DNA of 64,000 nucleotides from Vannielia litorea (GCF_019801175.1 NZ_JAHVJR010000001.1:2944580-3008579), one strand, 5' to 3'. Counted from the stretch's first letter, positions 29,120 through 29,596 are shown. Numbers and translations are program-made. Notes: a model not told the origin generated them from the sequence alone.

Positions 29120-29596
29120 ATGCGCCGCATCCTCATTCTCTCCACCACGGCCCTCACCATGGTCAGCGCCCCAGCCGTGGCCGACCTGTCCAAGCGCGAT
29201 ATCATGCGCATGCACCCCGGCGCCGACCGGATCGTGATCCAGCGCGGCAGTCAGACCACGCGGGTCGATGTCTACCGCGACGGCCAGCGCGAAGTCTTCG
29301 GCTACGACAACCGCTCCGACCGCCGGATCCACCACATGTCCGGGCTGGATGACGACGACGATGATTGGGATGACCACGACGACGATGACGACGATGACGA
29401 TGACGATGACGACGATGATGATGATCGTTACGACGACCGGGATGATGATCGCGATGATGACGACGATCGCGACGACGACCGGGATGATGACGATGACCGG
29501 GACGATGATCGCGACGATGATCGTGATGACGACCGCGACGATGATGATAACGACGACGACGACGACGACGACGACGACGACGACGACGACGATTGA
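29120..29596 (+). CDS. Secreted PepSY-like domain protein with ~90-residue poly-Asp / (RDDD)n C-terminal tail
   Basis: Signal peptide MRRILILSTTALTMVSAPAVA. Compact domain (ADRIVIQRGSQTTRVDVYRDGQREVFGYD). Then D-only and DRDDD periodic sequence to the stop. GGAAAAG Shine-Dalgarno 8 nt upstream of the ATG. Confidence 0.6.
   Translation: MRRILILSTTALTMVSAPAVADLSKRDIMRMHPGADRIVIQRGSQTTRVDVYRDGQREVFGYDNRSDRRIHHMSGLDDDDDDWDDHDDDDDDDDDDDDDDDDRYDDRDDDRDDDDDRDDDRDDDDDRDDDRDDDRDDDRDDDDNDDDDDDDDDDDDDD
29340..29590. repeat. Long (GAC/GAT)n trinucleotide microsatellite with embedded CGN periodicity (coding)
   Basis: About 250 bp of GAY codons in runs (gacgacgatgac...), with periodic CGC/CGG/CGT. A second shorter tract lies at ~29985-30065. 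Confidence 0.85.

Follow-up and report, generated by a model that had tools for sequence, protein, structure and literature searches.

The locus described here lies in a 64-kb stretch of Vannielia litorea DNA with a G+C content of 67%. This whole stretch, which is referred to as the window, was analysed, and all positions are counted from its first nucleotide. Adjacent to trpB, the window carries a cassette of three plus-strand genes, the first of which ends in a long tract of GAC and GAT codons. The genes and the features within them are as follows.

29120–29596, plus strand: ORF1, a 158-aa secreted protein (ORF calling and translation)
ORF1 residues 1–21 (…APAVA/DL), plus strand: Sec-type signal peptide, read from the sequence
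ORF1 residues 22–76, plus strand: PepSY-like domain of ∼55 residues, predicted to form a helix and four strands
29348–29593, plus strand: acidic-tail tract of 246 bp, or 82 codons (ORF1 residues 77–158)
29384–29467, plus strand: indel hot spot, with the 12-mer GATGACGACGAT at 29384, 29405, and 29456
29552–29590, plus strand: (GAC)13, 39 bp, the sole perfect microsatellite of the tract
29679–30068, plus strand: ORF2, a 129-aa secreted PepSY_2-like protein and probable paralogue of ORF1
29979–29993, plus strand: run of five Gly codons in ORF2, preceding its D-rich tail
29994–30065, plus strand: D-rich tail of ORF2 (translation)
30114–30686, plus strand: LuxR/GerE-type regulator, the third gene of the cassette, with a predicted membrane anchor and a cytoplasmic helix-turn-helix
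29202–30740, minus strand: ORF of 512 aa, spurious, whose poly-Arg run is the repeat read in reverse complement

ORF1 has the attributes of a genuine gene. An AGGAAA ribosome-binding motif is located 7 nt 5′ of the ORF, the GC3 value of its N-terminal part is 0.92, and its orthologues are annotated as genes in two further genomes, GCA_019801055.1 and CP051231.1. The AF2 model of the protein places a helix at residues 25–31 and four strands after it, with pLDDT values of 78–89 over the domain, and the tail is predicted to be disordered. The folded domains of ORF1 (29183–29347) and ORF2 (29745–29920) are Arg-rich and net basic, and the tails are strongly acidic. The computed net charge is about −57 for mature ORF1, about +3 for its folded domain, and about +6 for the domain of ORF2. 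This segregation of charge between domain and tail would permit the two parts to make contact, either within one molecule or between the paralogues.

When the first 78 residues of ORF1 were used in an exhaustive HMMER search, a small family of proteins of the same build emerged, which a profile search enlarged to 13 members. Common to this family are a signal peptide, the motif …IVdMfPGAqkIEIkRG..TTKVEV…, and an acidic tail. The member from Celeribacter baekdonensis bears the UniRef name "PepSY domain-containing protein." Two other matches in the HMMER search, P0122 (2158 aa) and P0125 (547 aa), were dropped as compositional or repeat artefacts since they are long and repetitive and have an unlike architecture.

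Searched by word index, the protein collection gave no match to the N-terminus of ORF1, and even the conspecific orthologues were missed. Exact protein look-ups of the ORF1, ORF2, LuxR, and MntP proteins of the window likewise matched nothing. Despite the empty word-index search, identical ORF1 N-termini are encoded and annotated on two NCBI contigs. Because this search overlooks orthologues that exist, "no homologue" results for low-complexity proteins should be distrusted. Proteins dominated by such sequence seem to be under-represented in, or filtered from, the protein collection.

ORF2 is identical to WP_222470739.1 of V. litorea (Paracoccaceae, Rhodobacterales). The core RTLLGRVRIVA…REIVFNPATGEILRD is common to ORF2 and its 180 homologues. 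Its AF2 model is a helix packed on four strands, with a pLDDT of 97 over residues 30–80, and the tail is again predicted to be disordered. The Pfam PepSY_2 profile (PF13670) matches the ORF2 of the window below threshold (16.2 bits against a gathering score of 24.3, E = 0.01). Within the ORF2 family, 7 of 33 members match this profile at E ≤ 0.01, and the best E value is 3.5e-6. The Pfam search found no PepSY match in ORF1 or in its family. When the AF2 models were used to search the PDB, BLIP-like/DUF2874 proteins, YpeB, and 4EXR were returned, but these matches are weak and stand among many small alpha/beta folds. These results hint, if weakly, at a PepSY relationship, and the domains are labelled PepSY-like rather than proven members of that family.

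The earlier note, which had been made from the sequence by itself, called the second gene a paralogue of the first. Pairwise BLASTP of the two N-terminal domains gives no alignment and lends this claim nothing. Profile–profile comparison of the two families by hhalign, in contrast, aligns them in register over 82 columns with a probability of 98.2% and an E value of 4e-14. On this comparison, ORF1 and ORF2 are best regarded as distant paralogues.

The product of the third gene matches the GerE domain (Pfam PF00196) over residues 98–150 with 25.5 bits against a gathering score of 23.5 (E = 1e-5). It also matches NCBIfam LIC13292 in part, at 55.8 bits against a cut-off of 200. Hydropathy analysis predicts two transmembrane helices, at about residues 4–27 and 43–65, with a short conserved outward loop between them. 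The motif SV.G..PISWQ..ELIEIGAALGL, which covers this loop and the first part of the second helix, is strongly conserved in 74 homologues of the regulator. Neither a kinase domain nor a receiver domain was detected in the regulator by Pfam and NCBIfam profile searches.

Synteny was sampled at 80 loci, with one genome scanned per species. The ORF2 family adjoins the transmembrane LuxR in 75 of the 80 loci, and those remaining are truncated contigs. The full order of trpB, ORF1 family, ORF2 family, and transmembrane LuxR is present in 47 of 80. A further 22 loci lack a match to the ORF1 profile. At 12 of these, a second acid-tailed secreted ORF that the narrow profile missed occupies the ORF1 slot, and the other 10 have no space between trpB and ORF2. 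C. baekdonensis has the cassette in the same order as the window. Most of the sampled Rhodobacterales carry the cassette, with its genes for two acid-tailed PepSY-like proteins and for a membrane LuxR, downstream of trpB. We found no account of the family or of the cassette in the literature on acid-tailed PepSY proteins, on PepSY proteins with LuxR, or on poly-Asp periplasmic proteins, and apparently the cassette is undescribed so far.

The spacers between ORF1 and ORF2 and between ORF2 and the LuxR gene are 82 and 45 bp long, and a scan revealed no terminator-like site between the three genes. These two characteristics make an operon plausible. A wider promoter and terminator scan of positions 28800–31100 returned nothing informative.

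Two non-coding regions that flank the cassette have features of their own. The spacer between trpB and ORF1 (28950–29035) has a perfect hairpin, GGCCTAAACC-tc-GGTTTAGGCC, directly after the trpB stop codon. The hairpin is followed by more copies of GGGGGTTTAGGCC and by an inverted CCTAAACCCCC (TRF period 21, 2.5 copies). This spacer is conserved in all three strains compared below, and may represent a terminator together with a small family of repeated elements. The second region, ∼360 nt at 30706–31070, is almost 100% identical in the same three strains, which are ∼3% diverged elsewhere. It contains two tandem tRNA-like elements with Rfam tRNA scores of 58.6 and 56.2 bits. The element at 30889–30962 has a perfect acceptor stem, an encoded CCA, and a 6-nt anticodon loop, AUUUAA, that would give the anticodon UUA; ARAGORN reports it as "tRNA-???". 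The element at 30965–31031 resembles tRNA-Arg(UCU), although no more than 4 of the 7 pairs in its acceptor stem are possible, and it receives no ARAGORN call. There is also a weak, sub-threshold match to YrlA (Y RNA-like) in this region. A structured RNA or the remains of an integration site are two possible explanations of the region.

The repeat in ORF1 also creates open frames other than its own. As had been claimed in advance, a 512-aa ORF with a poly-Arg run exists on the opposite strand at 29202–30740. Its GC3 is 0.60 and its GC1 is 0.86, values not typical of the real genes in this region, whereas the GC3 values of the plus-strand genes that it overlaps are 0.88–0.92. This difference marks the ORF as spurious, and the three genes that it overlaps have conserved homologues. 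On the plus strand, an alternative frame at 29268–29669 encodes a 133-aa poly-Thr/Met ORF. A metagenomic protein of the ORF1 family (P0132) has a normal N-terminal domain followed by a Thr/Met/Ala-rich tail that is the +1 reading of the GAY repeat and that this alternative frame matches. Its tail illustrates that an indel of 1 nt, whether real or a sequencing error, is enough to replace the acidic tail with a very different sequence.

The earlier note had described positions ∼29340–29590 as a GAY-rich tract with periodic CGN codons, and had placed a second D-rich tract near 29985–30065. Both tracts exist. In the ORF1 tail, 69 of the 82 codons are GAC or GAT and encode Asp, 9 are CGN codons that encode Arg, and the remaining four specify a single W, H, Y, and N. 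The second tract is the tail of ORF2, at 29994–30065. Across the whole of ORF1 there are 44 GAC and 32 GAT codons, or 76 Asp residues in total. The description of the ORF1 tract as a perfect triplet array does not hold, however, because most of it is a mixture of synonymous codons and only the last 39 bp are pure.

GAC and GAT are irregularly mixed in the tail DNA, which has a 12-bp periodicity of the XDDD type. TRF resolves the array at 29369–29593 into periods of 3, 12, 15, and 42 with matches of 65–68%. The pure run at its end, (GAC)13, can alternatively be read as (ACG)14 at 29550–29591, and no other trinucleotide run in the 64-kb window exceeds 5 units. Outside this run, ∼205 of the 246 bp are mixed GAC, GAT, and CGN codons in which perfect runs do not exceed 4 units. 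The GAT fraction of the tract without its final pure run is 0.53, compared with 0.38 in the other genes of the window (p = 0.026).

We consider it likely that the tract is the coding DNA of a poly-Asp tail that is under selection, and that this tail belongs to a Sec-exported, PepSY-like protein encoded in a cassette with ORF2 and the LuxR regulator, with its length drifting by slippage. The target of selection would be a long, Asp-rich, disordered polyanion at the C terminus, whereas the DNA repeat itself would not be conserved. Replication slippage between short direct repeats would cause whole codons to be gained or lost. Given the internal repetitiveness of the tract, tail length would then drift fast between close relatives, with survivors being only those variants that remain in frame. 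In this lineage, the last stretch may have expanded lately to a pure (GAC)13–14, which would be the truly slippage-prone element.

Much of the argument for selection comes from a survey of 129 tails of the ORF1 and ORF2 families in ∼80 species. The fraction of D plus E is at least 0.2 in 125 of the 129, a terminal DD is found in 116, and 57 have an Asp run of at least 8 residues. Three or more tandem XDDD units, in which X is mostly E or R, are present in 20 tails. An acidic tail is absent from 4 of the 129 family members, which indicates that the fold can do without it. One ORF1-family tail, from a MAG of an uncultured Marinosulfonomonas (L087), contains a run of N inside the coding region, and tracts like this one break or get masked in assemblies.

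At the DNA level, the longest perfect triplet run is 3–5 units in almost all tails, even where 45–54 consecutive Asp residues are encoded. The (GAC)13 of the window is the longest such run among 130 homologous tails, for which a recent expansion by slippage is the simplest explanation. To characterize codon order, GAC and GAT were shuffled within 132 poly-D runs. The z value for adjacent identical codons is ∼0, meaning that the order of the two codons is statistically random. There is a weak deficit in the longest homocodon run (z of −1.5 to −2.3), but none in adjacent pairs, and therefore our claim is limited to an absence of repeat purity. Active avoidance of homocodon runs, as selection against slippage, is not claimed. 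These patterns suggest that the conserved feature is the tail at the protein level and not the DNA repeat.

A different explanation is that the tail is a functionless, low-complexity appendage that arose by runaway slippage and is tolerated at the C terminus. Tails cannot be aligned between species, their lengths range from 35 to 216 aa (with medians of 86 and 78.5 aa in the two families), their predicted state in the AF2 models is disorder, and four of the 129 members have no acidic tail. All of this is consistent with neutrality. However, a neutral origin predicts pure DNA repeats, which are rare among these tails, and the composition of the tail is conserved in two paralogous families across ∼80 species. 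Moreover, Asp runs as long as 54 residues have stayed free of amino-acid changes while their GAC/GAT order has been randomized. Asp runs that remain intact while their synonymous sites are scrambled point to purifying selection on the amino acid, which argues against a neutral by-product of slippage. Likewise, the 80 genome loci include no frameshifted or truncated tail. We regard a neutral appendage as unlikely, and favor a tail that is selected for its composition and that drifts in length.

The extent of this drift was assessed by comparing three conspecific genomes: the window, GCA_019801055.1 (V. litorea), and CP051231.1. The latter two were recovered via neighbouring genes, and their flanks are 96.4–97.1% identical to the window. 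The three alleles are listed below.

Window: ORF1 158 aa, (GAC)13, ORF2 129 aa
GCA_019801055.1: ORF1 135 aa, (GAC)14, ORF2 129 aa
CP051231.1: ORF1 143 aa, (GAC)4, ORF2 128 aa, with one GGC unit fewer

Species labels around this locus are not uniform. CP051231.1 is titled "MAG: Oceanicola sp. isolate m2," yet it is 96–97% identical to the window and to GCA_019801055.1 over 7 kb. Conversely, the ORF2 homologue of "Vannielia litorea strain EBW16" (NZ_QTNQ01000168.1) is merely 58% identical, such that the naming of the species is inconsistent.

Tail length had been expected to differ between isolates with the frame preserved, and a count of repeat units across assemblies of the same species had been proposed as a check. 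The counts of 13, 14, and 4 GAC units and the three lengths of ORF1 bear out this expectation. Every ORF1 allele retains its acidic tail and its stop codon, with all changes in frame, and each of the five length differences between strains is divisible by three. In the ORF2 tail, the other strains carry substitutions relative to the window. The larger changes in ORF1 map to the hot spot at 29384–29467, where a 21-bp segment (29384–29404) is missing from CP051231.1 and a 72-bp segment (29384–29455) is missing from GCA_019801055.1. Each missing segment is bounded exactly by two copies of GATGACGACGAT, which is a signature of slipped mispairing between direct repeats.

In a 7.3-kb alignment of the three strains there are five indel blocks, of which two are in the ORF1 tract, one is in the ORF2 tract, and two are single-base intergenic changes; the coding flanks contain none. 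The density of indel events per base is ∼27–55 times higher in the 252-bp tract than in the 6.9-kb flanks. The ORF1 tract is therefore a coding variable-number tandem repeat that evolves by slipped-strand mispairing. Exact-match scans of metagenome contigs for the flanks of the tract found no further alleles.

Similar differences occur elsewhere in the two families. The ORF2 homologue of C. baekdonensis is 163 or 167 aa long, with the two forms one 12-bp QDDD unit apart. Among clusters at ≥90% identity, members differ in length in 8 of 10. Sequences were read for 7 length-variable clusters, and 6 of these differ by the gain or loss of acidic-tail units. The members of the seventh have no acidic tail and differ in start-site calls only.

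The earlier note went further and presented the tract as a likely contingency locus. Under this explanation, the tract would be an evolved hypermutable element whose reversible length changes generate heterogeneity within a population and act as a "rheostat" of tail charge and length. The variation inside clusters, the different tail length in each of the three strains, and the perfect run of 39–42 bp would all fit, since such a run is unusually long for a trinucleotide repeat in bacterial coding DNA. In Haemophilus influenzae, for example, coding trinucleotide repeats have ≤4 units (PMC2651432). As in slippage-evolved coding repeats, homopolymeric amino-acid tracts, and contingency loci (Moxon et al. 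2006, as related in PMC2651432), repeat number here differs between strains, direct repeats flank the indels, and there is a long run of pure (GAC)n.

The resemblance does not extend to switching. The repeat unit is 3 nt long and lies within the ORF, so that slippage can neither turn ORF1 off nor alter promoter spacing, and there is no phase variation here; all variants seen keep the tail. Indeed, trinucleotide coding repeats are not regarded as mediators of phase variation (PMC2651432). A contingency locus requires an uninterrupted simple repeat that is long enough to slip at high frequency, for which the terminal (GAC)13 is the sole candidate, and the ∼205 bp of codon-scrambled DNA that make up the rest of the tract are unlike a pure-repeat locus. 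Selection for mutability would favor long perfect runs, and the opposite is observed across the family, where poly-D is encoded without them. The two strains that do have the long run, the window and GCA_019801055.1, are one GAC unit apart at ∼3% divergence. A gain or loss of 1–24 Asp residues in a tail of ∼70 Asp is also a small effect. Furthermore, the organism is a free-living marine bacterium and no host-adapted pathogen. The contingency label is therefore unsupported, and we consider this explanation improbable. Slippage in the DNA of a selected poly-Asp tail would account for the same variation.

It is very unlikely that the tract or its length differences reflect repeat mis-assembly, or that ORF1 is no gene at all. 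Assembly of repeats is difficult (the run of N in L087 is an example), the polymorphism is known from three assemblies in which repeat-assembly errors could occur, and the exact ORF1 protein is missing from the protein collection, but the tract is present in three independent assemblies, its length differences preserve the reading frame, the larger indels have the biological signature of 12-bp direct repeats at their boundaries, and the N-terminal domain of ORF1 is conserved, has homologues and a high GC3, and is annotated as part of a gene in both other genomes.

If the tails are selected as polyanions in the periplasm, then they could serve as binders of Ca2+, Mg2+, or other metal cations. 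This proposal draws on an analogy with LanP and UipA and on the general chemistry of poly-Asp. Alternatively, the tails might be electrostatic partners of the basic PepSY-like domains, folding back onto them in a manner that depends on cations or ionic strength. ORF1 and ORF2 might in turn modulate the membrane LuxR as periplasmic accessory or sensor parts, much as DbfQ acts on DbfS. This second proposal is suggested by DbfQ/DbfS and by the tandem PepSY genes at BqsS.

Small periplasmic PepSY proteins are known to regulate membrane sensors that are encoded next to them, sometimes as tandem copies (PMC12714742). One of them, DbfQ of Vibrio cholerae, acts directly on the sensor kinase DbfS to regulate it, and in Pseudomonas aeruginosa two tandem PepSY genes, PA2658 and PA2659, are located upstream of BqsS (PMC12714742). 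Like DbfQ, the proteins described here are small, have a single domain (PepSY-like in their case), are predicted to be exported, and are encoded directly upstream of a membrane signalling gene, to which the ORF2 homologue is adjacent in 75 of 80 loci. Like PA2658 and PA2659, they occur as two tandem copies. In contrast to DbfQ-type systems, the partner is a one-component LuxR/GerE regulator with two transmembrane helices rather than a histidine kinase with a response regulator. The analogy with DbfQ is loose for this reason, and the cassette falls outside the DbfQRS type, although at most it might work alike. Two other differences are the poly-Asp tails of 35–216 aa (the word "acidic" does not occur in PMC12714742) and the marginal PepSY membership of the proteins by sequence.

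Carboxylate-rich PepSY proteins bind lanthanides, uranium, and iron (PMC9988556). Lanpepsy (LanP) and UipA (PMC9988556; Gallois et al. 2022, cited there) are small, exported or membrane-anchored PepSY proteins with a large excess of carboxylates and a low pI, each binding multiple metal cations, and ORF1 and ORF2 may be compared with them. LanP and UipA have acidic residues that line folded domains, of which there are two per chain, whereas ORF1 and ORF2 have one domain each, these domains are basic, and the negative charge is in a disordered tail.

A more distant resemblance is to proteins of biomineralization. Acidic shell proteins such as accripin11 have a role in binding calcium. Accripin11 of the mollusc shell (PMC9808598) is, like ORF1, small and secreted, and in both a folded N-terminal part precedes a poly-Asp C terminus, but accripin11 is eukaryotic, has an unrelated fold, and resides in an extracellular matrix, so the two share a resemblance only. 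This resemblance is a lead toward Ca2+ or mineral binding by the tails.

The broadest model that can be built from these analogies is an as yet undescribed envelope signalling system found throughout the Rhodobacterales. In such a system, the disordered poly-Asp tails of one or two periplasmic PepSY-like proteins would act as cation or ionic-strength sensors, or would autoinhibit the basic domains of the same proteins. These proteins would control the one-component LuxR regulator in the membrane through its short conserved outward loop, and slippage in the repeat would tune the set-point from lineage to lineage. We consider this model speculative and, as a whole, unlikely.

As a repeat, the ORF1 tract is an ordinary in-frame coding repeat of variable length, and is unusual in its length and in its pure 39-bp end. 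It could serve as a marker for strain typing. Acidic tails of this kind also give rise to spurious opposite-strand ORFs, assembly gaps, and frameshifted calls, which is a warning to assemblers and gene callers alike. The more useful result is the context of the cassette, which is apparently uncharacterized and lies next to trpB in most of the marine Rhodobacterales sampled. If Ca2+, Mg2+, or trace metals are bound by the tails and the regulator responds to this, then an ecologically dominant group of marine bacteria would have in the cassette a widespread means of sensing at the envelope. If this is true, the recently recognized role of small PepSY proteins as modulators of sensors would extend to one-component regulators.
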